Source: Bacteroidales bacterium (GTDB taxonomy: Bacteria > Bacteroidota > Bacteroidia > Bacteroidales > VadinHA17). Taken from it: DNA of 64,000 nt. Position numbers and translations under genes: made by a program. The notes beneath the pieces were generated by a model that was not told the DNA's origin, did no database searches, and saw only the letters and a program-made list of their open reading frames with translations. Location of the stretch: assembly GCA_003141895.1 (NCBI GenBank), contig PLNT01000043.1, positions 20,813-84,812 on the forward strand, read 5' to 3'. This document shows, one piece after another, positions 838-51,141 of this stretch. Numbering within the stretch: the first letter of the stretch is position 1; each line of letters begins with the position of its first letter.

Positions 838-1671
838 ATGAAATTAAAACTTTTTAATATTACCAATTTCAAGGTCGACGGCGGAGCAATGTTTGGTGTT
901 ATTCCAAAAGCATTATGGTCACGGGCATATAAACCTGATGAAAACAATCTCATAAACCTTTCTCTCAGATCGTTGATAGTCGAGACCGGAGGACACGTAA
1001 TTTTAATTGATACCGGCTGGGGCGACAAACAGGATGAAAAATTTTTCAGGCATATCAATCTGAATGGAGGAGATGGCCTTATAGAAGGACTTAAAAAGAG
1101 AGGCTATAGTCCTGAGGATATTACCGACATTTTTCTTACACATTTGCACGCTGATCATTGTGGCGGATCAATAAAAAGAAGAGGTAATAAATCTGAACTC
1201 ACTTTCCCGAAAGCTACCTGCTATATTAGTGATACACAATGGGATTGGGCCGTAAAGAATAATCTCCGCGAAGCTGATTCATTTCTGAAAGAAAATATTT
1301 TGCCATTGGGAGAACTCGGGGATCTTAAACTGGTAAAAGAGGAACAGGAATTATTCCCTGGTTTCAGGGTAATGATCTGTCACGGACATACCCCTGGTTT
1401 AATGATACCTATTATTAAATATAAAGGGAAAACCCTTGTTTATACCGGTGATCTGATGCCAACTGTAGCCCATATCCCTTTACTCTGGAATATGAGTTAC
1501 GATATCGAATCACTCAAAACAATAGGTGAGAAACAAAGAATCCTCAATGAAGCTCTCGACAAAGGATATATATTTGTTTTCCAGCATGATGAACATATCG
1601 AATGCTGTAATCTCGAGATGACACCTAAAGGGATAAGAGCCAGGGATAGATTCGACTTTTCGGAAATATGA
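838..1671 (+). CDS. MBL-fold metallo-hydrolase
   Basis: Classic HxHxDH motif 'THLHADHCGG' plus downstream His/Asp ('HGHTPG', 'TGD'). 277 aa is typical for the family. Confidence 0.85.
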   Translation: MKLKLFNITNFKVDGGAMFGVIPKALWSRAYKPDENNLINLSLRSLIVETGGHVILIDTGWGDKQDEKFFRHINLNGGDGLIEGLKKRGYSPEDITDIFLTHLHADHCGGSIKRRGNKSELTFPKATCYISDTQWDWAVKNNLREADSFLKENILPLGELGDLKLVKEEQELFPGFRVMICHGHTPGLMIPIIKYKGKTLVYTGDLMPTVAHIPLLWNMSYDIESLKTIGEKQRILNEALDKGYIFVFQHDEHIECCNLEMTPKGIRARDRFDFSEI

Positions 1672-1750
1672 CATTTGTTCCTGCCGAGAGTAGCTCTTTT
1701 TAATTGTGGCAAATTTAGTTTTTAATAGAATAAAATACTTTTCAAACGCA

Positions 1751-1829
1751 TTACCCCCTTCCCATCCTTCCCCCAAGGGGGAAGGCGTATCAAAACCTTT
1801 CCCCCTTGGGGGAAAATGAAAGGGGGTAA
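1751..1829 (+). repeat. Family A GC-rich structured intergenic element, copy 1
   Basis: The outer stem is TTACCCCCTT...AAGGGGGTAA. It encloses two perfect hairpins, CCTTCCCCC-AA-GGGGGAAGG and TTTCCCCC-TT-GGGGGAAA. Near-identical copies lie at 6796, 15464 and 50887. Confidence 0.85.
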
Positions 1830-1919
1830 AATTAAAAATATAAAACATAATTTATTACCAATTTTCTGAAGTGTTGTGCTTATTGGATTTCAAGTTTTTT
1901 CATTAATAAATTAATATAT

Positions 1920-3530
1920 ATGGCAGAATTTATTTACGAAAAACCGATTCAGCTTGGGAAGGATACCACAAGGTATAAACTTCTGACAAAAGAATATGTA
2001 AAGGTTGTTGAAGAAGGAGGCAGGAAAATACTTACAATTGATCCAAAAGGTCTGGAAATCCTTGCTAAAAAAGCAGTTTCTGAAATTTCCTTTTACTTTC
2101 GGACCACTCATCTTGAAAAACTTGCATTGATTCTTGACGATCCCGAAGCAACCGATAATGATCGTTTTGTTGCCTATATGTTGCTCCGTAATGCCGTAGT
2201 GAGTGCAGATGAAGATCTGCCATCGTGCCAGGATACAGGCACTGCAATAGTCATTGGAAAAAAAGGCGAGGACGTTCGCACAGGCGGCAAGGATGCCGGG
2301 CACTTATCCAAAGGCATATTTGAAACTTATAAGGAGAAAAACCTCAGATACTCACAGGTAATTCCATTCTCCATGTTTGAGGAAAAGAATACCGGAACTA
2401 ATCTGCCGGCGCAGATTGATATATATTCAACTGAAGGAAGATCGTATGAATTTCTATTCATTACAAAAGGAGGAGGATCTGCGAATAAGACTTTCCTTTA
2501 TCAGCAATCCAAATCATTGTTGAATGAAGAGTCACTGACAAAATTCGTCAAGGATAAGATTAAGGAACTTGGTACATCGGCATGTCCTCCATATCACCTG
2601 GCGATCGTTATCGGAGGGACTTCAGCTGAGGCAACACTTAAAACAGTTAAGGAGGCTTCTGCAGGCTATCTTGATCATCTTCCTTTTACCGGTAATGCAA
2701 ACGGCCGGGCTTTCCGCGATATTGAATGGGAAAAGAAAATTGAAAAAATTTGTCAGGAGTACGGTGTCGGTGCCCAATTTGGCGGGAAGTATTTTGTTCA
2801 TGATGTGAGGGTTATCAGATTACCACGTCATGCTGCTTCGTGTCCGGTTGGAATGGGTGTCAGCTGCAGTGCGGACAGGAATATTAGGGCTCATATTACA
2901 GAGGAAGGAATTTTTATCGAAGAACTTGAAAAGAATCCATCACGTTTTATGCCGGCTAAGGCTCCGGAACTGGAAAAACCTGTAGAAATTGATCTCGATC
3001 GGCCCATGAAAGATGTACTGGCTGAGTTGACAAAATATCCGGTCAAAACAAGATTGAATCTTAGCGGAACGCTTATTGTTGCGCGCGATATTGCTCATGC
3101 AATGATTAAAAAAATGCTGGATGAAGGTAAGCCGATGCCCGAGTATTTTAAAAACCATCCGATATATTATGCAGGCCCGGCAAAGACTCCTGAAGGAATG
3201 CCATCAGGTAGTTTCGGCCCGACCACAGCTGGCCGGATGGATCCGTATGTTAATCTTTTCCAGAGTCATGGCGGATCATTAATTATGCTCGCAAAAGGTA
3301 ACCGGACACGGCAGGTGATCGAAGCATGCAAAAAATATGGCGGATTCTATCTGGGATCAATCGGTGGACCAGCTGCCATCCTTGCTGCTGAAAATATAAA
3401 ATCGGTGGAACTTGTCGATTTTGAAGAACAGGGAATGGAGGCAATCCGCAAGATAAGGGTTGAGAATATGCCTGCATTTATACTTACCGATGATAAGGGG
3501 AACGACTTTTTTGATGAATACAATAAGTAA
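1920..3530 (+). CDS. fumB: class I (Fe-S) fumarate hydratase, fused alpha/beta form
   Basis: 536 aa. '[12 protein letters not shown]' in the N-terminal catalytic region and '[13 protein letters not shown]' in the C-terminal domain are typical of FumA/FumB-type enzymes. Confidence 0.9.
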
Positions 3531-3560
3531 CTCCCTAAATTCCTCTTTGTCACAGAAAAA

Positions 3561-3624
3561 AGGTTAAGTTTGAGGCTTAGGCAGAGACCTTAACCTTTAC
3601 CTTTACCTTGACCTTAACCTTTAC
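3561..3624. repeat. hairpin (AGGTTAAG..CTTAACCT) followed by six tandem CTTNAC hexamers
   Basis: Positions 3589-3624 read cttaac ctttac ctttac cttgac cttaac ctttac. The left arm at 3561-3568 pairs with 3589-3596. The element lies in the convergent gap between fumB and the minus-strand gene. Confidence 0.6.
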
Positions 3625-5163: not shown

Positions 5164-6693
5164 ATGAAACGATTTATATTATGGTTCATTCCAGGTCTTC
5201 TTGTTGGAGCCCTGATTATACTTGGTGCAGGAAAAGCACTGCAGGTGACATCCACTAATACATACTGTGTCTCCTGTCATATTCATCCGATGGCAGATTT
5301 TTCATGGAAGAAATCTATACATTATGATACCCGGTCGGGATACAGGGTTGCCTGCATCGAATGCCATCTTCCTCCCAAAGGTCATGGTTATCTCTGGGCA
5401 AAAGGTAAAACAGGTCTGCGCGATCTATGGAGTAAATGGACAAAAGATTCAGCTTCATTTAACTGGTCCGACAGAAGTCATCTTGAAGTTGCCCGAAATT
5501 ATGTGTATGAAAGCAGTTGCATAAAATGTCACGAGAATCTTTTCCCTGCAAAGCTTTCAAAAGCTGGTGAAGATGCTCATCTTTACTATACACAAACAAA
5601 AAAAACCGACGAACTGAATTGTATCAACTGTCATCTGAATGCCGGACATTTTATTGAAGGTTATACGCACGGAAGTAATTCAACATTTGGAAATACATCT
5701 TCAGCCGCAAAAGAAATATATACCGAGCCGGCAAAAGTTTCTGAATTTAAAAGCTTCACTGAGAGCATTCCAAAATCCTCTGTCTCTTTTAACATGGTAG
5801 CTATTCCGGGAGGGACTTTCCATTTAGGCAGTCCACTTTCCGAACCATTCAGGAAAGATGATGAAGGGCCTGTCAGGGAAGTTCGTCTGAGTCCGTTTTT
5901 CATGGCTGAGATTGAAGTTTCATGGGATGAATACCTTGCATTCTATGTACAGACAGCAGCTGAAGGCCGATCAACTGATACCGAAGGTCTGAGAAAAAAC
6001 AAAGCACTGGAAACTGATGCAATTTCCGGTGCAACTCCGCCTTACGGTCAGCCTGATCAGGGCTGGGGTCTGGGAAAAAGACCTGCTATCTCATTTTCTT
6101 TCCATGCGGCTGAGACCTATTGTAAATGGCTCAGTAAAGTCACCGGTAAGAATTATCGACTCCCGACCGAAGCTGAGTGGGAGTATGCCTGCAGGGCAGG
6201 ATCAGATGGACCCTATTTTTTCCCGGGAAATCCGAAGAAATTTGAAAAGACCGGATTAAGAGCAAAGCTTTCTAAAAATGATACAACAGTCATTAATACT
6301 TATGTTGTTTATAAGGGTAATAGTCCTGCAAAAACACAGCCTCCTGAAAGGGTTAAACCTAATCCATTCGGATTAATTAATATGACCGGGAACGTGGCAG
6401 AGTTTTGCGCCGATTGGTATCAGCCTGATGCTTACTCACGATATCCTTCCGGTGCCATAAATGATCCAAAGGGACCCTCTGAAGGAACTGAACATGTAAT
6501 TAGAGGCGGTTCCTTTCAGAGTTCGGCAGGTTATGTCAGAAGTGCATCACGCGACTATACAAAAACAGCGGCATGGTTAAAAACTGACCCTCAGATGCCA
6601 AAGAGCATATGGTGGTATTCCGATTGTTTCAATGTCGGTTTCAGAGTTGTTTGTGATTTTGATGAGAAAACCGGGAATATAAAAAAGGATTAG
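5164..6693 (+). CDS. membrane-anchored NapC/NirT-type tetrahaem cytochrome c fused to an FGE/SUMF1-like (sulfatase-modifying-factor fold) domain
   Basis: N-terminal TM helix followed by four CxxCH motifs (CVSCH, CIECH, CIKCH, CINCH). The C-terminal half carries 'MVAIPGGTFHLGS', 'YRLPTEAEWEYACRAG', 'GNVAEFCADWY' and 'RGGSFQSS...GFRVV', all typical of the FGE-sulfatase fold. Confidence 0.8.
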   Translation: MKRFILWFIPGLLVGALIILGAGKALQVTSTNTYCVSCHIHPMADFSWKKSIHYDTRSGYRVACIECHLPPKGHGYLWAKGKTGLRDLWSKWTKDSASFNWSDRSHLEVARNYVYESSCIKCHENLFPAKLSKAGEDAHLYYTQTKKTDELNCINCHLNAGHFIEGYTHGSNSTFGNTSSAAKEIYTEPAKVSEFKSFTESIPKSSVSFNMVAIPGGTFHLGSPLSEPFRKDDEGPVREVRLSPFFMAEIEVSWDEYLAFYVQTAAEGRSTDTEGLRKNKALETDAISGATPPYGQPDQGWGLGKRPAISFSFHAAETYCKWLSKVTGKNYRLPTEAEWEYACRAGSDGPYFFPGNPKKFEKTGLRAKLSKNDTTVINTYVVYKGNSPAKTQPPERVKPNPFGLINMTGNVAEFCADWYQPDAYSRYPSGAINDPKGPSEGTEHVIRGGSFQSSAGYVRSASRDYTKTAAWLKTDPQMPKSIWWYSDCFNVGFRVVCDFDEKTGNIKKD

Positions 6694-6795: not shown

Positions 6796-6876
6796 TTACC
6801 CCCTTCCCAACCTTCCCCCAAGGGGGAAGGAGTGGATCAACCTTTTCCCCCTTGGGGGAAATAAGAAAGGGGGTAA
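6796..6876 (+). repeat. Family A GC-rich structured intergenic element, copy 2
   Basis: Same outer stem and two inner hairpins as 1751-1829. Only the inter-hairpin spacer differs. Confidence 0.85.
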
Positions 6877-8448: not shown

Positions 8449-9393
8449 ATGGATTATTCAAGGAGAAATTTCATAAAGAAAAGCACTGCAACAGGAGCTG
8501 CAATTTTAGCCGCTCCTGCAGTTTTTGGCAATATTTCTTTGCCAAAGAGACAGAAAGCAGCCGATGCAACGGAACCATTCAAACTGAAATATGCTCCGGG
8601 ATTTGGCATGTTTCACGAACATGCTGGTGATGACCTTATCGATAATATCAGGTTTTGTCACGACATGGGCTTCAGAGCAATGTTCGATAATGGTTTGATG
8701 ACGCGGCCCCTTGCCGATCAGACAAAGATAGCCAATGAGATTCATCGGCTGGGGATGGACCTTGGTCCCTTTGTTTTGTATGCTGATTTTTCAGTGACCT
8801 CATTTGTACTTAACAAAGAGGATATCCGACAAATGCTGGTAAGCAAGATGAAAGAAGGGGTGGAGGTTGCTAAACGGACAGGTGTTAAATGGGCCCTGGT
8901 TGTGCCCGGCAGGTACGATGAAAGACTCCCTCGCGATTATCAGACAGCAAACGTGATTGACAACCTAAGATATTGCTGTGATATTATGGAACCTGCCGGC
9001 CTGACAATTGTACTTGAGCCATTGAATACTATTCACGATCATCCAGGGTTATTCCTTAACGGAATACCACAGGCTTATGCAATTTGCAGAGCAGTTAACA
9101 GGCCAGTTTGTAAGATTGTTGACGATATTTATCATCAGCAGATTACTGAAGGGAACCTGATTCCAAATATTGAAGCTGCCTGGAGTGAGATTGCTGCTTT
9201 CCATCTGGGTGATAACCCGGGAAGAAATGAACCGACAACCGGGGAAATCAACTTCAAAAATGTTTTCAAATATATCTACAGCCGTAAATATGATGGTGTA
9301 CTGTGTATGGAACATGGAAACCACGATAAAGGTAAAGAGGGAGAACAAAAGGTAATTCAGGCATACCGCGAATGCGATAGCTTTGAAATATAG
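8449..9393 (+). CDS. Tat-exported xylose-isomerase-like TIM-barrel protein (hydroxypyruvate isomerase-like sugar phosphate isomerase/epimerase family)
   Basis: Twin-arginine signal 'SRRNFIKKSTATGAAILAAPA'. Motifs 'LEPLN', 'DDIYHQQITEGNL', 'HLGDNPGRNEPTTGEINF' and 'LCMEH' are Hyi-like metal-site motifs. Confidence 0.8.
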   Translation: MDYSRRNFIKKSTATGAAILAAPAVFGNISLPKRQKAADATEPFKLKYAPGFGMFHEHAGDDLIDNIRFCHDMGFRAMFDNGLMTRPLADQTKIANEIHRLGMDLGPFVLYADFSVTSFVLNKEDIRQMLVSKMKEGVEVAKRTGVKWALVVPGRYDERLPRDYQTANVIDNLRYCCDIMEPAGLTIVLEPLNTIHDHPGLFLNGIPQAYAICRAVNRPVCKIVDDIYHQQITEGNLIPNIEAAWSEIAAFHLGDNPGRNEPTTGEINFKNVFKYIYSRKYDGVLCMEHGNHDKGKEGEQKVIQAYRECDSFEI

Positions 9394-9397
9394 TTAA

Positions 9398-9502
9398 ACC
9401 TCACCCCAACCCCTCTCCCAAGGGAGAGGGGCTTAAAATTATTTACGGGCTTTGTCCTTTTACTCCCCTTCTCCCCTGGGAGAAGGGGTAGGGGGATGAG
9501 GT
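9398..9502 (+). repeat. Family A-like element with the same architecture but different sequence
   Basis: The outer stem pairs ACCTCAcCCC with GGGGGATGAGGT. It encloses two perfect 10-bp hairpins, CCCCTCTCCC-AA-GGGAGAGGGG (9410-9431) and CCCCTTCTCC-cctg-GGAGAAGGGG (9465-9488). It starts 4 nt after the upstream stop codon. Confidence 0.75.
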
Positions 9503-9533
9503 AAATGATATATGGTTAATAAATACTCTTCTT

Positions 9534-10637
9534 ATGAAAAAATTCTTATTCCCAGTCCTTGTATCTGTTCTTATTATTACGACATCAGTATCATCTTTCA
9601 GCCAGCCAATAAGATTATTTGCCGGCAGATATACCGACAGCGGAGGGAAGGGACTGTATCTCTTTGATTTAAACCGTGAATCCGGAACTTTTAAAGAGTT
9701 ATCTGAGGCGGAAGCCGGTCCAAACCCATCATATTTCTGTCTTTCAAAAAAGAAAGGGTTGATTTACGCTGCAAATGAGGTTATGGAATTCAATGGTGTC
9801 AACGGCGGAGGTGTAACTGCATTAAAATATGACCCGAAAAATGGAAGTATTGAAAAGATCAAAGATTTATTAGTGCCTGATGGCGGACCCTGTTTTATAT
9901 CGATAACACCAGATGAAAGCTATTTATTACTGGCCAATTATTCAAGCAGTTCAATTTCTGTTGTAAAGTTAGACGCCGATGGAATTCCAGACAGTGTTAC
10001 TGATAAAATAGCGTTCCCTGAAAATGACGGAAAGGTTTCTCATCCTCATATGATTTCTTTTGGTCCGTCAGGGAAAGTTTATCTGACTGATCTTGGGCTT
10101 GACAGGATTGTGATCTATGATTTTGATAATGGGACAGGGAAACTAAGCCAAAGTGGCATTATCAACTTTCCGAAAGGAACAGGCCCACGACATTTTGTAT
10201 TTAATTCCAGCGGAACAAAAATGTACGTTATCTGTGAGCTTAATTCAACAATATCGGCCCTGGATGTTGATAAAGATGGTGGGTTAAAATTAATTCAGAC
10301 TCTGTCAGCTCTTGCGGAAGATTTTAAAGGTGAAAGTAATTGTGGTGACATTCACCTGGGCAACAACAAGCAGTATCTTTACGGATCAAACAGGGGTGAA
10401 AACACAATTGTTGTATTCAAAATTGAAACTGACGGGAAATTGAAACTTGCCGGAAGAACTTCATGCGGAGGTGTCTGGCCAAGAAATTTCGTTATCGATC
10501 CGTCTGGAAAATATCTTCTTACAGCAAATCAGAAATCCGGGAATATTGTTCTCTACAAAATCGATTCGAAAAGCGGCCTTCCTGTTGCGACTTCAAAAGA
10601 GTTTAAAATTGATTCACCTGTTTGCCTGAAATTTTAG
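9534..10637 (+). CDS. secreted 7-bladed beta-propeller lactonase (Pgl/YbhE-type 6-phosphogluconolactonase family)
   Basis: Signal peptide. Repeated blade motifs and 'GPRHFVFNSSGTKMYVICELNSTISALDVD' and 'PRNFVIDPSGKYLLTANQKSGNIVLYKID' are typical of this lactonase family. Confidence 0.8.
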   Translation: MKKFLFPVLVSVLIITTSVSSFSQPIRLFAGRYTDSGGKGLYLFDLNRESGTFKELSEAEAGPNPSYFCLSKKKGLIYAANEVMEFNGVNGGGVTALKYDPKNGSIEKIKDLLVPDGGPCFISITPDESYLLLANYSSSSISVVKLDADGIPDSVTDKIAFPENDGKVSHPHMISFGPSGKVYLTDLGLDRIVIYDFDNGTGKLSQSGIINFPKGTGPRHFVFNSSGTKMYVICELNSTISALDVDKDGGLKLIQTLSALAEDFKGESNCGDIHLGNNKQYLYGSNRGENTIVVFKIETDGKLKLAGRTSCGGVWPRNFVIDPSGKYLLTANQKSGNIVLYKIDSKSGLPVATSKEFKIDSPVCLKF

Positions 10638-10661: not shown

Positions 10662-10785
10662 CGCTCGGAATGACATTTACTGAGGCTTAGCGTAGTTAGA
10701 GGAAGGAAGGAGCATTGAGTCGCGCACGCGATTCAATGCTCCTTCCTTCCTACGTCCAAATAAAAATGACGTGTCATTCCGAGCG
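10662..10785. repeat. Family C nested palindromic element, copy 1
   Basis: The outer inverted repeat pairs CGCTCGGAATGACA (10662-10675) with TGTCATTCCGAGCG (10772-10785). The central ~24-bp hairpin GGAAGGAAGGAGCATTGAGTCGCG / CGCGATTCAATGCTCCTTCCTTCC spans 10701-10750. Confidence 0.8.
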
Positions 10786-15463: not shown

Positions 15464-15543
15464 TACCCTCTTCCCGGCCTTCCCCCAAGGGGGAAGGAGT
15501 AGCGCTATCATTTCCCCCTTGGGGGAAATAAGAAAGGGGGTAA
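15464..15543 (+). repeat. Family A GC-rich structured intergenic element, copy 3
   Basis: Both inner hairpins are identical to the other copies. The outer left arm is slightly degenerate (TACCCTCTT). It starts 8 nt after the glpK stop codon. Confidence 0.8.
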
Positions 15544-37924: not shown

Positions 37925-38260
37925 AGCTACTCTTTGTACACATCTTGAATTGATTCACTGTGCCTCTGAATTTCTGAATAGAGGAAGGAGATCCTTCATT
38001 TCGCTGGTACTTCGCAAGCTCCATACCAGCTCATTCAGGATGACAGTGTTCCGTGGGTGTGATTTGGGGAAGGAAGCGGCGCGTTTTGTAGAGAACAAAA
38101 CGCGCCGCTTCCTTCCTCCCCCATTTTACACACATTGCCTTGTCATCCTGAGTTGCAGCTATCCCGAGCTTGCGAGGGATTGCTACAACGAAGGATCCCA
38201 TGGATTTTTCGACAAATTTGTTAAAAAATGAAATATGACCTTTGTGTACAAAGAGGAGCT
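37925..38260. repeat. Family C 336-bp nested-palindrome element with 18-bp terminal inverted repeats (MITE-like)
   Basis: The TIRs are AGCTACTCTTTGTACACA (37925-37942) and TGTGTACAAAGAGGAGCT (38243-38260), matching 17 of 18. Internal inverted pairs are GATCCTTC/GAAGGATC and CAGGATGACA/TGTCATCCTG. The central perfect 22-bp stem GGAAGGAAGCGGCGCGTTTTGT (38068-38089 / 38095-38116) has a 5-nt loop. Confidence 0.8.
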
Positions 38261-43418: not shown

Positions 43419-46400
43419 TTGGGATCAGGGATATCATATAAGAATATTCTGATATTTTCGTATCTTCTACTTTTAACTTCTTTCCTTTTAAAACCCACAG
43501 AAGCAAGTAGTCAAGCTGCGTTGACCAATGTTGTAAGGGATACTACCACCCGAAAATCAATTCTAAAACTAAATGATGATAAAGGAATCCCATGGGAACC
43601 GCAACAAAAAGCTCCCTTATTCCTTGATAAACCGTCAAACATCAAAACTACTGCAATCTATGATCCCGTTAAGAATGAATACATCTTATATGAGAAAGTA
43701 GGCGCTTTTGATTATCGCCCCCCTGTGCATATGGATCCCGAAGAATTCAGGAAGTATGCATATGCAAAAGCAATGCGTGATTACTGGCAATCGCGAATCT
43801 CAGGGAAAGAAGCCGGTTTTAAGTCAAATCTGATACCGCAGATAGAAATTGGAGGGGCGGCATTCGATAAAATATTTGGAAGTAATACCATTAATATCGT
43901 TCCCCAGGGATCGGCTGAACTCATATTCGGTATAAATATTTCAAAGACGGAAAATCCCACCCTCCCCGTTAAGCTTCAGACAATTCCAACATTCGATTTC
44001 AAGGAAAAAATTCAGATGAACGTTACCGGAACCATCGGTGATAAAATGACACTCGGTATTAATTATAATACCGATGCGATGTTTGAATTTGAAAACCGGA
44101 CAAAACTTCAATATGCAGGAAAGGAAGATGAAATATTAAAAAAAGTTGAAGCTGGAGATGTAACTCTTCCTCTGACAGGTACTTTAATTACTGGTAGTTA
44201 TAGTCTGTTTGGTCTCAAAACTGAAATGCAATTTGGCAAGCTTACTGTCACTACTGTTTTATCGCAACAGAAGGGCCAGTCTTCCGTAATTCAGGCCAAG
44301 GGAGGGGCACAGATCACAGATTATGAGGTTTTTGCAGATGATTACGAAGCGAACAGACATTTTTTTCTATCTCAGTTCTTCAGAGATACATATGATGAGT
44401 CGCTGAAGAATATGCCTGTTGTAAGTTCAGGAGTAAACATTCAAAGGATAGAAGTCTGGGTTACAAACAAACAGAGCAGTTTTGTAGAGGCCAGTAACAG
44501 GAATATTGTAGCGTTTATGGACCTTGGAGAAAACTCAAAACATATCTTTAATAAAGTGCCGGCCTTCCAGGCCGGAGGGTCTGCTGTATATCCCGATAAT
44601 GAGGCAAATAAAATGTATAATCAACTTACCACTTCATACGGAATGATCCGTAATGTTGATCAGGTAACAAATGCTTTTGCGCCCTTATATCCGGGATTTC
44701 AGATTGGAAGGGATTTTGAGAAGATTGAGAATGCCAGAAAACTTGATGAACGGGAATATGATATTAACACCAAGCTTGGGTATATCTCACTAAATACTGC
44801 TTTGAATACTGATGAAGTACTCGCAGTTGCTTATGAATACACATACGGAGGCAAGATTTATAAAGTCGGTGAGTTTTCTACCGATGGTATAACTGCACCA
44901 CAGGCACTGGTGCTGAAACTCATTAAAGGAACCACCCTGAGCCCTAAATTACCCACATGGAATCTCATGATGAAAAATATTTATTCTCTGGGATCGGGGA
45001 AGCTTGATAAAAAAGATTTTGTACTAAATGTGCTTTACCAGGATGACAAAACCGGAAATTCAATTAACTATATTCCGGAAGGTAGCCTTGCAAATAAAGT
45101 TCTTTTACAGGTATTAAATCTGGATAATCTGAATTCTCAGCTTGATCAACAGCCTGATGGGTTTTTCGATTTTATCGATGGGGTGACCGTTATGGTTGAC
45201 AGGGGTAAGATTATTTTCCCTGAGATTGAACCCTTTGGCAGTTACCTGAAAAATAAAATTGGGAATCCTGCTCTGGCAAGCAAATATGTTTTTCAGGAAT
45301 TATATGATTCAACACAGACCATTGCAAGACAGATGGCTGAAAAAAATAAATTCACTCTGAAAGGACAATATTCATCACAATCAGGTTCTGTAATAAGGTT
45401 AAATGCTTCAAACATCCCTCAGAACTCAGTTAAGGTTACTGCCGGAGGAGTCCCTCTGACTGAAAACACTGATTATACTGTTGACTATAATATGGGAACA
45501 GTGACTATTATTAACAGTGCCCTGATTGAATCACAGACGCCTATACAGGTTTCATTAGAAAATAATCAGTTCTTCGGATTCCAGACAAAAACACTCGTAG
45601 GGACCCATCTCGACTATCGTGCTTCGGAAAACTTCGACATTGGAGCAACAATACTACATCTTACTGAAAGACCCTATACCCAGAAGGTGAATTATGGCGA
45701 AGAACCAATCTCAAATACAATATGGGGCTTAAATACTTCATATAAGACAGAATCACAATTGCTTACAAAGATCATTGATAAAATTCCGCTTCTTAATACG
45801 AAAACGCCTTCTTCAATATCCTTCTTTGGTGAATTTGCAAATCTTATTCCAGGGCATTCGAAGGCAATAACAAATGCCGGTAATGCATACATAGATGATT
45901 TTGAAGCCAGCGAAATTCCTCTCGATCTTAAATCATTTAATGCCTGGACAATTTCAAGCGTACCACAGGGACAGGATCAATTTTTCCCTGAGGCTAAGTT
46001 CAATGATAATCTGGTAAGTGGTTTTAACAGGGCTAAATTAGCATGGTATGTAATTGACCCCCTGTTTCTGCGTAATGGATCATCCACCCCAGATTATATT
46101 AAACAGCACCCCGATGAACAATCGAGCCATTTTGTAAGAGAAATTTACGAAAATGAGATTTTTCCTAACATAGAGAGTCCAAGCGGAATCCCGACAAATA
46201 TAGCCGTGTTGAATCTTGCCTTCTATCCCGGAGAAAAAGGTCCATATAATTATGATACTTCCCCGGGCCCCTATTCGGCTGGGATGAATTCAGCCGGGAA
46301 ATTAAATGACCCACAAACAAGATGGGGCGGCATAATGAGAGAGGTGCTGACGAGCGATTTCGAAACTGCAAATGTGCAGTATGTTCAATTCTGGGTTATG

Positions 46401-49400
46401 GATCCGTTTGTTGATAATCCAAATGGGGCAGGAGGAGATCTTTATTTTAATCTTGGAGATATTTCAGAAGATATCCTGCGCGATTCCCGGAAAAGCTTTG
46501 AAAACGGACTTCCCAATTCTCCGGTTGTAAAAGATGTCGACACTACTGCATGGGGTAGGGTTCCTACAGTGCAAGCAGTAGTTCATGCTTTTGACAATGC
46601 CCCGGAATCAAGATTGTTTCAGGACGTTGGACTCGACGGGCTTATGGATCAGGACGAACAGACTTTTTTCGCTAATTATCTGCAGAAAGCTTTGCTGATT
46701 ACATCTCCTGATGCGTACAGTGAAATTCTAAAAGATCCATCGGGTGATGATTATCATTATTTCAGGGGTTCAGATTACGACGCCCAGCAGTTGGGCATCC
46801 TTGACAGGTATAAAAAGTATAACGGAGAAGAAGGAAACTCTCCTACTTCACAGATGTCGAAAGAATCTTATCCGACTTCCGGCTCGACACTACCGGATGA
46901 AGAAGACATCAACCGTGATAATACCTTAAATGAAACAGAAAGCTACTATCAGTACAAAGTCAGTATGCGTCCGGGAGACCTTAAAGTCGGCTCAAACTAC
47001 GTAGTTGATGAAATTGAATCACCCGTAATTACTTTTCCAAACACCAAAAAATCCAGTGTAAAATGGTACCTGTTTAAGGTTCCAATCACAGATTATCAGA
47101 AAGTTGTCGGACCCATTAAGGATTTTAAGTCAATCCGTTTCATGAGAATGTTTCTACGTGGTTTCAGCGAACCTGTAATAATGCGATTTGCAAAACTCGA
47201 CCTTGTCCGTGCTGAATGGAGAAAATACAATATTTCATTCATGGAAGGGGGAGAAAGGGTGACGGTACCGGAAGCTACTGATGGATCATTTGAAATCAGC
47301 TCGGTCAGTATTGAACAGAATGCAAGTAAAATACCTGTAAATTATACTTTGCCTCCCGGGTTTGACAGAGTGACAGATCCTCAGAATCCCCAACTGAGAC
47401 AGCTCAACGAACAATCAATGGTTCTTAAAGTTATGAATCTTCAGGACGGTGATGCACGGGCAGCATTCAAAAATATTAATCTTGACATCAGAGATTACCG
47501 CAAATTACGAATGGAGGTTCATGCTGAGGCAATGATCGGTCAGCCATTACATGATGATGATCTGACTGCATTTATCAGGATCGGATCAGATTATAAGGGA
47601 AATTTTTATGAATATGAAATTCCTCTGAAGCTCACCGCGCCTGGCCATTATGATAATAATTCAGAAGATGACAGGGCTAAGGTCTGGCCCGCAGAAAATA
47701 GTTTTATAATAGACCTTTCAGTTTTGCAGGCTGCGAAACAGGAACGAAACCGGCAGATGGATCTTCCCGGATCGTCTTTGAGTCTCACTGATGTATTCGT
47801 GTATCAAAACGGAACAGCGAGAGTTTCAGTTTCAGGGAATCCAAATATGAGCAACATTAAGGTCATAATGATAGGGGTAAGGAACCCAATTAAAACTCGG
47901 AGCAGTTCTACTGATGATGGGCAACCAAAATACGCCGAGGTTTGGGTAAACGAACTCCGTTTAAGCGATTTTATTGAAGACGGAGGTTGGGCTGCTAATT
48001 CACATTTACAGGCACGACTGGCTGATCTTGGAACCGTTGATATGGTTGGTCAGGCAAGTACGCCCGGATGGGGAAGTATCGAGCAAAAGATAAATGAAAG
48101 GAGCAAGGAAAATATTTTAAAATACGACATTTCGTCAAGTATCGAACTTGGCAAATTTTTCCCCGAAAAGGTTGGTGTCAGACTTCCTGTATATGTCGGC
48201 TATTCTGAGACCAGGATAAAACCTCAGTATAATCCCCTTGATCCTGATATACTTTTAAGCAGTGCATTAAATGCGGCAAAAAATAAGGCTGTCAGAGATT
48301 CAATATTAAATATTGCAGAAGATTATTCAAGAAGAAAAACAATAACCGTCAGTAACGCGGGTATAACAAAACGAGGTGAAAAATCTCATGCCTGGGATCC
48401 TGCTAACTTAAGTGTGAATTATACTTACAATGAAATATTAAGCCATAATACAAATACTGAAATTAATCTGGAGAAAGACTACAAAGGGGGCCTGAACTAT
48501 GATTTTCAGGCTCAACCAAAAAATATTATGCCCTTCAGGAATGTAAGTTTTCTTAATGGATCAGCTTTCAAAATTATTAAAGACTTTAATTTTTATCCAT
48601 TTCCTAAAAGTCTCTCATTCAGGACTGATCTGAGCAGAACTTACAATGAATTAATAACCAGGAATATAGATAATCCGTATCTAATGGTTACACCGTCTTT
48701 TAAAAAAGATTTTGAATGGAGCCGTATTTATGATTTTAAATATGATGTTACAAGACAATTGAAGTTTGATTTCACAGCAACAAATCTATCGCGAATTGAT
48801 GAGCCGCCAGGCGGAGTTGATAAAAACAGATATAGCAGTTCATACAACATGTGGCGTGATTCTGTCTTAACTAATTTAAGAAGAGGAGGGAGAACAACAA
48901 CCTATAATCATTTTATGAATATAACGTACACACTGCCTGTAAATAAGCTTCCGTTCCTTTCATGGGTGAATGCGAACGCCCGTTATAGTACAGATTATAC
49001 ATGGCTTGCAGGACCGCTTTTCCCCGATAGTACGCATATTAACCTGGGAAACTCAATTAAGAACCATAATGAGATGACATTTACAACAATGGCATCTCTC
49101 TCCTCCCTCTATACTAAATTGAAATTCCTGAAAAATATTGAAAATAATACTATGCCCGGAGCGGCGAAAAAAATGAAGGCCGAGTTAAGAACCGTTACTT
49201 ATACCAAAGATAATGTGAGCTTTAAAGCAAACGTAGCTAAACTTGTTAACCATAATCTGAAAACAAAAGATATTAAGGTTAAGGTTGTTGGTAAGAACGG
49301 TGAAGAGATAAAAGGTAAAGTAGATATTGTAAGCGAGAACAGAATTAATTTTACTGCATCGACGCAGGTTGATGGTGCCAAGGTTGTTGTGGAAGGTAAG

Positions 49401-50861
49401 GTCAAGAAGACCAGGGATCCATTTATTGTTGCTGGTGAGTATGTGATCAGGGCACTAATGGGCATAAGGTCAGTTAGCCTGACATATACCACATCGCAGG
49501 GACAATTCTTACCTGGTTATTCTCCTGAAACGAGCTTTCTTGGAATGTCAGACTATAATGGCAGTCTTGCACCAGGGTGGCCGTTCATCCTTGGATACAG
49601 CGACAGGAATTTCTTCGACAGGGCTGTTACCAAAGGTTGGCTTTCAAGGGATACAATACTTAATACCCCTGCAATCTATGATAATAAAAGAGAACTTTCT
49701 CTGAGGAGTCTTATTGAACCTTTCCCCGGTTTAAGAATTGATATTGATGCAGACAGAAGATTCCTCGAATCGGAAAGCTCATATTATATTGCTGATATCA
49801 ATGGGAATTTTCCCGATAGCATTCGCAACCGCATCATGAATGGGAACTTTTCAATGTCAATTATTTCGTGGGGAACGTCATTCGAAAAGATATCGAAAAG
49901 TAATGACTACGTCTCACCTGCATTTGAAGCATTTAAGAAAAATATTGTAATAATTTCAGATCGGAGAGCTTCAGCCCGGCAGAAGATAGATCCAAATTAT
50001 GATCCCAATATTGATCCGATAACAGGACAACCAATTGTTGGACCTTATAAAAGTGGATATGGTGAAACTTCGAGTGAAGTATTGATACCTGCATTTATAG
50101 CGGCATACACAAAATCAAATCCAAATAAGATATCACTGGAAACTTTCCCTTCTGCTTTCCGGATGATGCCAAACTGGAGGATAAATTTTGATGGGTTGTC
50201 GAAATTTGATTTTGTACAAACAGTATTCAGGTCGATTAATCTTACTCACCAGTACAGAAGTACGTATCAGATAGGATCCTACACCACAAATCTGAACTAT
50301 GTGCCTGATGAAGACGGAATAATCAGACTAAGAGATCTTCAGGAAAATTTCATTCAGCAATATCAAATTGATGTCGTCACAATTAATGAACAATTCAGTC
50401 CTTTGATAAATGTGGATATGAATTGGAAAAATAGTCTCACCACACGTTTTGAATGGAGAAAGTCGCGTACTGTGACTCTTAATCTGACGAGTAATCAGGT
50501 TTCGGACGCCCGGATAAATGAGCTTATATTTGGTGCCGGATACCGGTTTGATGATGTCCAGTTAATTCTCAAGACCATGGGAGGGGGACAAAAGGCTTTG
50601 AAAAGCGATCTTAATTTGCGTTTTGACCTTTCTATTCGCGATAATAAAACTCTGGCACGAAAACTTGTTGAGGATGTTGATCAGCCTGTTGTAGGACAGA
50701 AAGTATTTTCAATAGGAGTGACAGCAGACTATGTCCTGAGCGACAGGTTCAATCTTCAGGTCTTTGCTGATCGTTCTATGAATAATCCGTTCGTGGCAAA
50801 TACTTTTCCCACTTCTAATACCAATTTTGGATTCAGCCTTAAATTTACATTGGTACAGTAA
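43419..50861 (+). CDS. sprA: SprA, giant outer-membrane translocon of the type IX secretion / gliding system
   Basis: 2480 aa, with an N-terminal signal-like segment. Size, composition and the ruvA-adjacent position are typical of Bacteroidota SprA. The C-terminus is beta-barrel-like ('NFGFSLKFTLVQ'). The only in-frame start after the upstream TAA is the TTG at 43419. Confidence 0.85.
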   Translation: MGSGISYKNILIFSYLLLLTSFLLKPTEASSQAALTNVVRDTTTRKSILKLNDDKGIPWEPQQKAPLFLDKPSNIKTTAIYDPVKNEYILYEKVGAFDYRPPVHMDPEEFRKYAYAKAMRDYWQSRISGKEAGFKSNLIPQIEIGGAAFDKIFGSNTINIVPQGSAELIFGINISKTENPTLPVKLQTIPTFDFKEKIQMNVTGTIGDKMTLGINYNTDAMFEFENRTKLQYAGKEDEILKKVEAGDVTLPLTGTLITGSYSLFGLKTEMQFGKLTVTTVLSQQKGQSSVIQAKGGAQITDYEVFADDYEANRHFFLSQFFRDTYDESLKNMPVVSSGVNIQRIEVWVTNKQSSFVEASNRNIVAFMDLGENSKHIFNKVPAFQAGGSAVYPDNEANKMYNQLTTSYGMIRNVDQVTNAFAPLYPGFQIGRDFEKIENARKLDEREYDINTKLGYISLNTALNTDEVLAVAYEYTYGGKIYKVGEFSTDGITAPQALVLKLIKGTTLSPKLPTWNLMMKNIYSLGSGKLDKKDFVLNVLYQDDKTGNSINYIPEGSLANKVLLQVLNLDNLNSQLDQQPDGFFDFIDGVTVMVDRGKIIFPEIEPFGSYLKNKIGNPALASKYVFQELYDSTQTIARQMAEKNKFTLKGQYSSQSGSVIRLNASNIPQNSVKVTAGGVPLTENTDYTVDYNMGTVTIINSALIESQTPIQVSLENNQFFGFQTKTLVGTHLDYRASENFDIGATILHLTERPYTQKVNYGEEPISNTIWGLNTSYKTESQLLTKIIDKIPLLNTKTPSSISFFGEFANLIPGHSKAITNAGNAYIDDFEASEIPLDLKSFNAWTISSVPQGQDQFFPEAKFNDNLVSGFNRAKLAWYVIDPLFLRNGSSTPDYIKQHPDEQSSHFVREIYENEIFPNIESPSGIPTNIAVLNLAFYPGEKGPYNYDTSPGPYSAGMNSAGKLNDPQTRWGGIMREVLTSDFETANVQYVQFWVMDPFVDNPNGAGGDLYFNLGDISEDILRDSRKSFENGLPNSPVVKDVDTTAWGRVPTVQAVVHAFDNAPESRLFQDVGLDGLMDQDEQTFFANYLQKALLITSPDAYSEILKDPSGDDYHYFRGSDYDAQQLGILDRYKKYNGEEGNSPTSQMSKESYPTSGSTLPDEEDINRDNTLNETESYYQYKVSMRPGDLKVGSNYVVDEIESPVITFPNTKKSSVKWYLFKVPITDYQKVVGPIKDFKSIRFMRMFLRGFSEPVIMRFAKLDLVRAEWRKYNISFMEGGERVTVPEATDGSFEISSVSIEQNASKIPVNYTLPPGFDRVTDPQNPQLRQLNEQSMVLKVMNLQDGDARAAFKNINLDIRDYRKLRMEVHAEAMIGQPLHDDDLTAFIRIGSDYKGNFYEYEIPLKLTAPGHYDNNSEDDRAKVWPAENSFIIDLSVLQAAKQERNRQMDLPGSSLSLTDVFVYQNGTARVSVSGNPNMSNIKVIMIGVRNPIKTRSSSTDDGQPKYAEVWVNELRLSDFIEDGGWAANSHLQARLADLGTVDMVGQASTPGWGSIEQKINERSKENILKYDISSSIELGKFFPEKVGVRLPVYVGYSETRIKPQYNPLDPDILLSSALNAAKNKAVRDSILNIAEDYSRRKTITVSNAGITKRGEKSHAWDPANLSVNYTYNEILSHNTNTEINLEKDYKGGLNYDFQAQPKNIMPFRNVSFLNGSAFKIIKDFNFYPFPKSLSFRTDLSRTYNELITRNIDNPYLMVTPSFKKDFEWSRIYDFKYDVTRQLKFDFTATNLSRIDEPPGGVDKNRYSSSYNMWRDSVLTNLRRGGRTTTYNHFMNITYTLPVNKLPFLSWVNANARYSTDYTWLAGPLFPDSTHINLGNSIKNHNEMTFTTMASLSSLYTKLKFLKNIENNTMPGAAKKMKAELRTVTYTKDNVSFKANVAKLVNHNLKTKDIKVKVVGKNGEEIKGKVDIVSENRINFTASTQVDGAKVVVEGKVKKTRDPFIVAGEYVIRALMGIRSVSLTYTTSQGQFLPGYSPETSFLGMSDYNGSLAPGWPFILGYSDRNFFDRAVTKGWLSRDTILNTPAIYDNKRELSLRSLIEPFPGLRIDIDADRRFLESESSYYIADINGNFPDSIRNRIMNGNFSMSIISWGTSFEKISKSNDYVSPAFEAFKKNIVIISDRRASARQKIDPNYDPNIDPITGQPIVGPYKSGYGETSSEVLIPAFIAAYTKSNPNKISLETFPSAFRMMPNWRINFDGLSKFDFVQTVFRSINLTHQYRSTYQIGSYTTNLNYVPDEDGIIRLRDLQENFIQQYQIDVVTINEQFSPLINVDMNWKNSLTTRFEWRKSRTVTLNLTSNQVSDARINELIFGAGYRFDDVQLILKTMGGGQKALKSDLNLRFDLSIRDNKTLARKLVEDVDQPVVGQKVFSIGVTADYVLSDRFNLQVFADRSMNNPFVANTFPTSNTNFGFSLKFTLVQ

Positions 50862-50886: not shown

Positions 50887-50965
50887 TTATTCTTTTTTAC
50901 CCCCTTCCTAACCTTCCCCCAAAGGGGAAGGAAAAATCAGACCTTTCCCCCTTGGGGGAAAATGA
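50887..50965 (+). repeat. Family A GC-rich structured intergenic element, copy 4
   Basis: The outer stem TTACCCCCTT...AAGGGGGTAA is perfect. The inner hairpins are CCTTCCCC(C)-AAA-GGGGAAGG and TTTCCCCC-TT-GGGGGAAA. It lies 25 nt after the sprA stop codon. Confidence 0.85.
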
Positions 50966-51141
50966 AAGGGGGTAAATCATAAACCAAGAATTTACTAGTC
51001 TGAGTGAACCGTCTGTTGAGTGTAATCAAGGTTCACTTTCAGAAATCGAATGAAACATAGGGATGTTTCTTCCTTCCTGAAAATCAGGCGTAATGTGATA
51101 AAATAAAGAGGATTACATGTACATTTATCGAAGCATTTTTC

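Follow-up and report, generated by a model that had tools for sequence, protein, structure and literature searches.

The REP sequences and BIMEs of Escherichia coli act as stabilisers of mRNA 3′ ends and carry sites for gyrase and IHF. In insertion sequences of the IS200/IS605 type, the two ends neither form inverted repeats nor pair with one another, and a fixed target of 4–5 nt lies 5′ of the left end. REPINs are doublets of REP sequences that form hairpins and are mobilised by HUH tyrosine transposases called RAYT or TnpA-REP (Bertels and Rainey, 2011, PMC3116915; Quentin et al., 2018, PMC6006769), and these two studies are the REPIN literature used for comparison here. The catalogued REP superfamilies are defined by a GTAG or CGTC tag at one end of the palindrome (PMC3733652), and the Correia elements of Neisseria are characterised by a TA duplication, an IHF site and promoter-like ends (PMC10969869).

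Here, we analyse four GC-rich elements in a 64,000-nucleotide stretch of contig PLNT01000043.1 from a Bacteroidales bacterium, which is referred to as the window. A preliminary description of the window had likened them to REP/BIME- or Correia-type elements, and the class of REP, BIME and MITE-type elements has proved to be the right one for comparison. The four elements are genuine members of one interspersed palindromic repeat family of wetland Bacteroidales that had not been described before and that is built like selfish DNA of the REP or REPIN type. With a probability of about 0.6, we regard the repeat as a REPIN-like non-autonomous DNA element, with copying or maintenance in DNA form by a putative trans-acting enzyme.

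Four copies of the element in the window

The four elements are near-identical, 75–77 bp long, all on the + strand and each situated between + strand ORFs, in agreement with what had been described. Their two hairpin motifs are far more frequent than in shuffled sequences: the 20-mer CCTTCCCCCAAGGGGGAAGG matches at 1766, 6811 and 15478 and, with one mismatch, at 50912 (0.01 expected from shuffles), and the 18-mer TTTCCCCCTTGGGGGAAA matches at 1798, 6844, 15511 and 50944 (0.14 expected). In an alignment of 46 copies of the family the boundaries of the element are sharp: an invariant A-CCCCC opens it and GGGGG-T closes it, and conservation collapses outside.

The element consists of two inverted copies of one unit joined by a variable spacer of 10–25 nt. 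The unit comprises a C5 tag (ACCCCCTT), a linker of 5–7 nt and a self-complementary GC hairpin built around TCCCCC-WW-GGGGGA. Copy 1, delimited by alignment and by nhmmer (92.3 bits on the + strand, 42.6 on the − strand), occupies 1753–1827 on the + strand, 81 nt 3′ of the stop of ORF 838..1671 and 92 nt 5′ of ORF 1920..3530. All of its parts are read on the + strand: the 5′ arm of the outer stem, ACCCCCTT, at 1753–1760; hairpin 1, CCTTCCCCC-AA-GGGGGAAGG, at 1766–1785; the variable spacer between the hairpins at 1786–1797; hairpin 2, TTTCCCCC-TT-GGGGGAAA, at 1798–1815; and the 3′ arm of the outer stem, AAGGGGGT, at 1820–1827. Copy 2 (6798–6874, +) has hairpin 1 at 6811–6830 and hairpin 2 at 6844–6861 and lies 3′ of a cytochrome-FGE ORF (5164..6693); its arms, 6796–6828 and 6844–6876, are imperfect 33-nt terminal inverted repeats with 73% complementarity. 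Copy 3 (15465–15541, +; hairpin 1 at 15478–15497, hairpin 2 at 15511–15528) is located just 3′ of the glpK stop (15455), and copy 4 (50899–50973, +; hairpin 1 at 50912–50931, hairpin 2 at 50944–50961) is 3′ of the sprA ORF 43419..50861.

Of the intervals originally given, that for the fourth copy, 50887–50965, was about 10 nt too far to the left, the span from TTACCCCC to GGGGGTAA being 50897–50975. Distances of 79, 102, 8 and 35 nt from the stop codons are correct when they are measured, as they were at first, to a TTA/CTA start. The layout of an outer stem enclosing two hairpins also stands, but the stem is of 8 bp rather than 10 bp, and the pairing is not perfect throughout: in copy 3 the outer stem contains a single mismatch (ACCCTCTT) and copy 4 has a G-to-A change at the loop-closing pair of hairpin 1. 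The ORF 1510..1848 on the − strand is indeed spurious, reading through copy 1 as ...SPLGEGWEGG....

The window has further palindromes. A fifth element with the same three-stem layout and other cores is located at 9397–9503, between ORFs 8449..9393 and 9534..10637: CCCCTCTCCC-AA-GGGAGAGGGG, a spacer and CCCCTTCTCCC-CT-GGGAGAAGGGG are closed by ACCTCACCCC and GGGGGATGAGGT, and a relative of this element is found at L095:4566–4655. Near-perfect hairpins with arms of 22–25 bp, starting with GGAAGGAAG and ending with CTTCCTTCC, are located at 10700–10751 and 38068–38116 and, from their sequences, look like another repeat family; that at 10700–10751 is nested within a second inverted repeat of 18 nt (10658–10675/10772–10789).

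An undescribed family and its relatives

When the window and 18 related loci were searched against Rfam 15, only a tRNA reached the gathering threshold, and permissive thresholds added generic miRNA-precursor hairpins only, far below threshold. In open-access full text the core sequence strings were found only as unrelated primers. The statement that no family with this sequence had been described is therefore upheld by both Rfam and the open-access literature. A BLAST search of plasmid and phage collections gave one partial match and nothing else.

A hidden Markov model built from the four window copies detected 43 further members of the family in at least 18 species-level Bacteroidales MAGs from fens, peat, lake sediment and soil, and a metagenome scan added 124 copies at 120 loci. 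In all, 171 copies from related Bacteroidales MAGs and metagenomes were reduced to 132 distinct sites. Three sub-lineages can be distinguished by the right linker (ATG, TAAG or CGGG), which coexist in single genomes and recur across genomes. The repeat family is thus undescribed, but its general kind, the interspersed palindromic repeat, is known. What is unusual is that its two arms are non-identical, each self-complementary, and closed by a third C5/G5 stem, and that the same layout is present in several phyla.

This last point comes from a genome scan for two TCCCCC-WW-GGGGGA dyads, which gave at least 110 loci, as against about 0.004 expected by chance according to our own arithmetic. Among the genome matches listed, other families have the layout CCCCCT, hairpin, spacer, hairpin, AGGGGG; their carriers are Prevotella, Alphaproteobacteria including Phenylobacterium, Terriglobia/Acidobacteriota, Ignavibacteriota and Cytophagales, and the families of Phenylobacterium and other Alphaproteobacteria have extra hairpins in the linkers. 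The outer C5/G5 clamp, which was absent from the search pattern, is present in 79 of 104 non-tandem matches among those listed. The Bacteroidales family could belong, as a single branch, to a superfamily of three-stem C5/G5 elements that spans phyla and in which a folded DNA junction would be read by a distinct and widespread putative enzyme; we hold this only tentatively, and it is improbable as matters stand. Such a superfamily, with a CCCCCT/AGGGGG clamp and two non-identical TCCCCC-WW-GGGGGA hairpins, would unite the elements of Bacteroidota, Alphaproteobacteria, Acidobacteriota, Ignavibacteriota and others. If true, it would mean a new element–enzyme system or host function distinct from that of GTAG/CGTC REPs and RAYTs.

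In one family from Prevotella MAGs (L049, L085, L101, L102, L105, L109, L115, L122, L124 and L126), a 37-nt spacer (TGATGGCTGCGCACAGTGGAAGCGCTAACGGGGCT) is conserved between GCCCCCTCCAGC-TCCCCCAAGGGGGAG and its complement, and copies occur in either orientation; conservation of the loop suggests that it has its own function. The dyad is also found in head-to-tail arrays of 36–51-bp units, each with one TCCCCC-WW-GGGGGA, which are tandem clusters unlike the doublet form (L023:328–429 in a betaproteobacterial MAG, L099:2050–2147, L111:2633–2718, L119:855–1021 and L104:2925–3038). A scan of viral contigs with a loose pattern picked up iterons of small viruses, which are unrelated tandem repeats of small circular viruses and were set aside. 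In the IMG/VR contigs L001, L002, L005, L006, L009, L010, L012, L013 and L015 (2.8–5.9 kb, mostly close to 3 kb), units of about 27 bp, for example CCCCCAAGGGGGCTCCGCCCCCTTAAA, are repeated in tandem near a contig end and are probably replication-origin repeats unrelated to the element.

Two local hairpins or one long hairpin

The element is predicted to fold with −40 to −54 kcal/mol. The preliminary description had proposed a three-way junction, which is favoured by one kind of evidence and not by the other. By RNAfold, with RNA and with DNA parameters, the energy minimum is a single long hairpin, formed by pairing of the two hairpins with each other and of the AA loop with the TT loop. It is better than the three-stem fold by 5.6–14.5 kcal/mol with RNA parameters and by 2–9 kcal/mol with DNA parameters, although the three-stem fold, at −38 to −43 kcal/mol, is still very stable.

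Comparison among copies points the other way. Over 134 distinct copies, the local hairpins are paired in 99.5% of cells as against 87.3% for the pairing between hairpin 1 and hairpin 2, in which two positions are unpaired throughout. In 23 copies AA at the centre of hairpin 1 is replaced by AT, AC, GT or TT and hairpin 2 shows no compensating change, and a compensatory C-G versus T-A pair distinguishes hairpin 1 (CCTT...AAGG) from hairpin 2 (TTT...AAA). In L182:1710–1809, a 6-nt insertion makes hairpin 2 longer and still perfectly paired. Nine or more independent related families have hairpin stems that are unlike each other and yet each self-complementary, with local extensions of the stem by 2–4 bp as against cross extensions of 0–1 bp. 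Since the stems are invariant within the family there is no classical covariation, and the hairpin cores are invariant in the alignment partly as a result of the search patterns, which fixed them. From the sequences, then, comparative data favour two local hairpins and thermodynamics favours the long hairpin; the junction keeps its pairing across copies and related families but is not the energy minimum.

The stems consist of Watson–Crick pairs only, with neither G-U pairs nor strand asymmetry, so that both strands fold alike, as expected of an element acting at the DNA level. The equivalence of the strands would equally suit a platform for binding of protein to double-stranded DNA, as BIMEs are for gyrase and IHF, on which a dimeric host protein would occupy each 14-bp dyad TCCCCC-WW-GGGGGA, so that the elements would contribute to chromosome structure or supercoiling. 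Conservation is highest in the dyad, of which only the two central bases vary, which is typical of the spacer between half-sites, and the same dyad recurs in several phyla. However, this recurrence is partly imposed by the search pattern, and the dyads are 13 to 38 nt apart, depending on the family, and show no helical phasing. Moreover, the compensatory differences are found beyond the dyad, where they lengthen the local stems; this matters to a hairpin and not to a fixed protein site. No candidate protein is known. We consider such a platform unlikely.

Position and orientation relative to genes

The copies are always intergenic. None is inside a coding region, and the long open frames that run through copies merely touch the ends of genes. 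Called ORFs are present on both sides at 97 of the 132 sites, where the spacer is co-directional in 80, convergent in 9 and divergent in 8; the baseline for spacer types at the same loci is 71, 15 and 14%, and the types are occupied roughly in proportion to it. At the co-directional sites the element is on the strand of the genes in 45 cases and on the opposite strand in 35 (p = 0.31). It follows that the co-orientation of all four window copies with the upstream gene, taken earlier as a trait of the elements, is a local coincidence. Orientation relative to local GC skew, for which 8-kb windows are a poor proxy of replication direction, is 25:22 and also shows no bias. Position within the spacer is not random: the nearer gene boundary is the upstream stop at 52 sites and the downstream start at 26 (n = 78, p = 0.004), with the element at a median distance of 48 nt 3′ of the stop. 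The earlier idea of a 3′ intergenic placement is thus retained as far as closeness to stop codons is concerned, but convergent spacers are not enriched and divergent ones are occupied.

In the 46-copy alignment the 5′ flank is rich in T and the 3′ flank in A, and neither a direct repeat nor extra pairing is present in the flanks; the left flank has a weak preference for TT (27–30 of 46 copies). A U-tract on the 3′ side is absent from all four window copies and from the family consensus, and a scan with a terminator consensus picks up nothing but hairpin 2 of copy 1, on the − strand. An intrinsic terminator of the classical type, already discounted in the preliminary description because T-tracts are missing, is ruled out by these A-rich 3′ flanks with no U-tract.

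A different proposal is that the element is a cis-acting RNA element selected by the host at mRNA 3′ ends, kept site by site, the fold of which would stop 3′–5′ exonucleases or terminate or attenuate read-through. The closeness to stop codons agrees with this, as do predicted folds of −46 to −54 kcal/mol with z-scores of −4 to −6.6, and the near-symmetric design would serve both orientations. Nevertheless, there is no strand preference with respect to the transcribed gene, which was named from the start as the finding that would speak against an oriented 3′-end signal, and 8 of the 97 sites are divergent promoter spacers, with no enrichment of convergent ones. The T-rich 5′ and A-rich 3′ flanks are the reverse of those of a bidirectional terminator, and the absence of G-U pairs and of strand asymmetry from the stems also speaks against it. 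The comparison of orthologous sites bears on this proposal as well.

Turnover at orthologous sites

Loci orthologous to all four window sites were found through the neighbouring proteins, with protein identities of 83–98%. At site 1, 3′ of the MBL hydrolase gene, the element is present in the window and absent from L139 and L140. At site 2 it is present in the window, in L136 (98%) and in L140 (83% protein identity), and absent from L137 and L139. At site 3, the glpK–glpF spacer, it is present in the window and absent from L134, L135 and L132, and at site 4, 3′ of sprA, it is present in the window and absent from L262, in which the neighbour is 96% identical; a decayed relic with a weak signal may be present in L263. 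None of the four sites shows a clean indel of 77 bp; the orthologous spacers always differ by more than the element, and the boundary of insertion is therefore not readable. A truncated solo arm (L029:5320–5374) and a copy interrupted by another palindrome (L019:7297–7424) show decay and nesting.

The retained orthologous copy at site 2 is 96% identical, as against about 70% for the surrounding spacer, which would be expected if a host function were under selection at an mRNA 3′ end. On the other hand, the orthologous genes of close relatives manage with no element. Taken together with its position and orientation, we regard a host-selected 3′-end RNA element as a possible but improbable origin of the family.

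The orthologous spacers have other contents. The L136 locus is on a strain-level JGI contig (Ga0334826_002316, 13,762 bp) that, by arithmetic on lengths only, appears to start at about copy 1 and to end about 300 nt past the glpK stop, shortly past copy 3. The glpK–glpF spacers of L134 (4498–4664) and L135 (4498–4671) contain an unrelated AT-rich inverted repeat in which tandem AAGTGCCTAAAGTG-like units face CACTTTAAACTTT, and a similar AT-rich inverted repeat is present in the window at 3559–3622, 3′ of ORF 1920..3530. In L132, with a 95% identical GlpK, the same spacer contains a transposase gene of the IS110 family (L132:4504–6021; PF01548/PF02371), seemingly inserted in the middle of an ATCCCCC-T..A-GGGGGAT palindrome, 3′ of CCCCCT and a GGCCGCTTCGCGGCC hairpin. 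This arrangement recalls members of IS110 that target REP sequences (PMC12288879).

Search for a partner gene

In six-frame translations of the window and 245 loci, about 1.6 Mb around the 171 copies, no ORF with the HUH and Y motifs of a RAYT was found; this search covered the loci around copies, and a single-copy RAYT could easily lie elsewhere in the genome. Likewise, no RAYT- or IS200-like gene adjoins any copy, an association that had been suggested for checking. All-against-all clustering of neighbouring ORFs gave neither a recurrent neighbouring gene nor a recurrent transposase, and only housekeeping genes lie between paired copies. The loci examined contain neither a longer element with the same ends nor a pair of solo arms at the spacing of an insertion sequence.

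These results also bear on whether the element is a classical MITE, that is, an internally deleted derivative of an insertion sequence with a DDE transposase that moves by cut-and-paste through the 33-nt terminal inverted repeats. The imperfect repeats themselves, the small size, the multiple intergenic copies and the IS110-family element at the orthologous glpK site of a relative could be taken in this sense. However, a target-site duplication of 2–4 bp is not seen: direct repeats of 2, 3 and 4 nt flank 1, 1 and 1 of 46 copies, respectively, at or below the expectation from shuffled partners. In addition to the missing longer elements, solo-arm pairs and recurrent transposase, the DDE mechanism does not require that the arms be palindromic. 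We therefore consider a DDE-type MITE very unlikely, its terminal inverted repeats notwithstanding.

A probable REPIN-like DNA element and its possible consequences

The element occurs in multiple, strictly intergenic copies with sharp ends, no target-site duplication, random orientation and presence or absence at orthologous sites; truncated and interrupted copies exist, and several sub-lineages share a genome. An inverted doublet of tag and hairpin with exact ends, situated between genes in either orientation with no duplication, diversified into sub-lineages and, where retained, better conserved than its flanks, is the pattern of REPINs, and from this pattern we infer that the element is copied or maintained as DNA. 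In the REPIN-like scheme, a structure-specific enzyme acting in trans would recognise the folded hairpins in single-stranded DNA, and it would most plausibly be of the HUH/Y1 type, as for REPINs and IS200/IS605-derived elements. Copies would survive mainly just 3′ of stop codons because insertions there would be least harmful. Once co-transcribed, the very stable fold would probably be an incidental block to 3′-exonucleases or a roadblock to transcription in either orientation. An effect at mRNA 3′ ends, as a side effect or a co-opted function, is plausible as a secondary property in view of the closeness to stop codons and the stability of the fold in either orientation, but the statistics of orientation and spacer type argue against it as the reason why the family exists. 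The conservation at site 2 and the proximity to stops would, conversely, also fit a selected host function.

For annotation, the repeat matters as a source of spurious ORFs, and the data suggest that it breaks short-read assemblies. For genome evolution, it is of interest as a marker of the hot spots at which intergenic DNA turns over in uncultured Bacteroidales of wetlands. Arms that are each self-complementary and yet unlike each other, in a layout shared by several phyla, point to a putative enzyme that recognises folded DNA. If such a partner were found, the paradigm of REPINs and RAYTs would be extended to elements of the Bacteroidota type that have no GTAG tag. A fold that also stabilised or ended transcripts would be relevant to gene expression in this phylum, for which the map of 3′-end signals is poor.

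Comparison with known systems

The element resembles the BIMEs of E. coli in its location just 3′ of stop codons within operons and in a predicted fold that would be stable enough to block exonucleases, but it has no sequence relationship with them and belongs to another phylum. It shares with Correia elements and other MITEs (PMC10969869) the form of a short intergenic inverted repeat, a long RNA hairpin, which is predicted here, and the creation of spurious ORFs; co-transcription with neighbouring genes may, by analogy, be another likeness. Unlike Correia elements, it has no duplication and no sequence similarity to them, and each of its arms is a palindrome in itself.

As in PATEs, which are derived from IS200/IS605 and non-autonomous, two subterminal hairpins on the same strand are slightly unlike each other, in the manner of left-end and right-end hairpins, there is no terminal duplication, and the ends are exact to the nucleotide. 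The element differs in that its ends are inverted and pair with each other, in that the only preference on the 5′ side is the weak one for TT, and in that no relative of tnpA or tnpB was found.

The catalogued REP superfamilies do not include the element: its ends are A-CCCCC-TT and AA-GGGGG-T, and neither hairpin has GTAG or CGTC beside it in the alignments of 46 and 134 copies. The REPs listed for RAYT subclass 2.6 of Bacteroidetes (PMC6006769, supplement) are unrelated in sequence. At the level of motifs only, GGGGWSAS, as given for terminal inverted repeats flanking Acidobacterial tyrosine transposases (PMC3733652), matches GGGGTGAG in relatives of the Terriglobia type.

REPINs differ from the element in several respects. 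The tag of the element is ACCCCCTT instead of GTAG or CGTC, the hairpin of each unit is a near-perfect GC palindrome with a loop of 2–4 nt, the two tags pair together to close a three-stem structure, and the approximately 1.6 Mb around copies contained no RAYT. The architecture of a REPIN is nevertheless found here: two short inverted units, each with a conserved 5′ tag and a hairpin, are separated by a variable spacer. Like REPINs, the element is present in tens to hundreds of intergenic copies with no target duplication and in several sub-lineages per genome, and its orthologous copies are kept across related genomes, where the element is more conserved than its surroundings.
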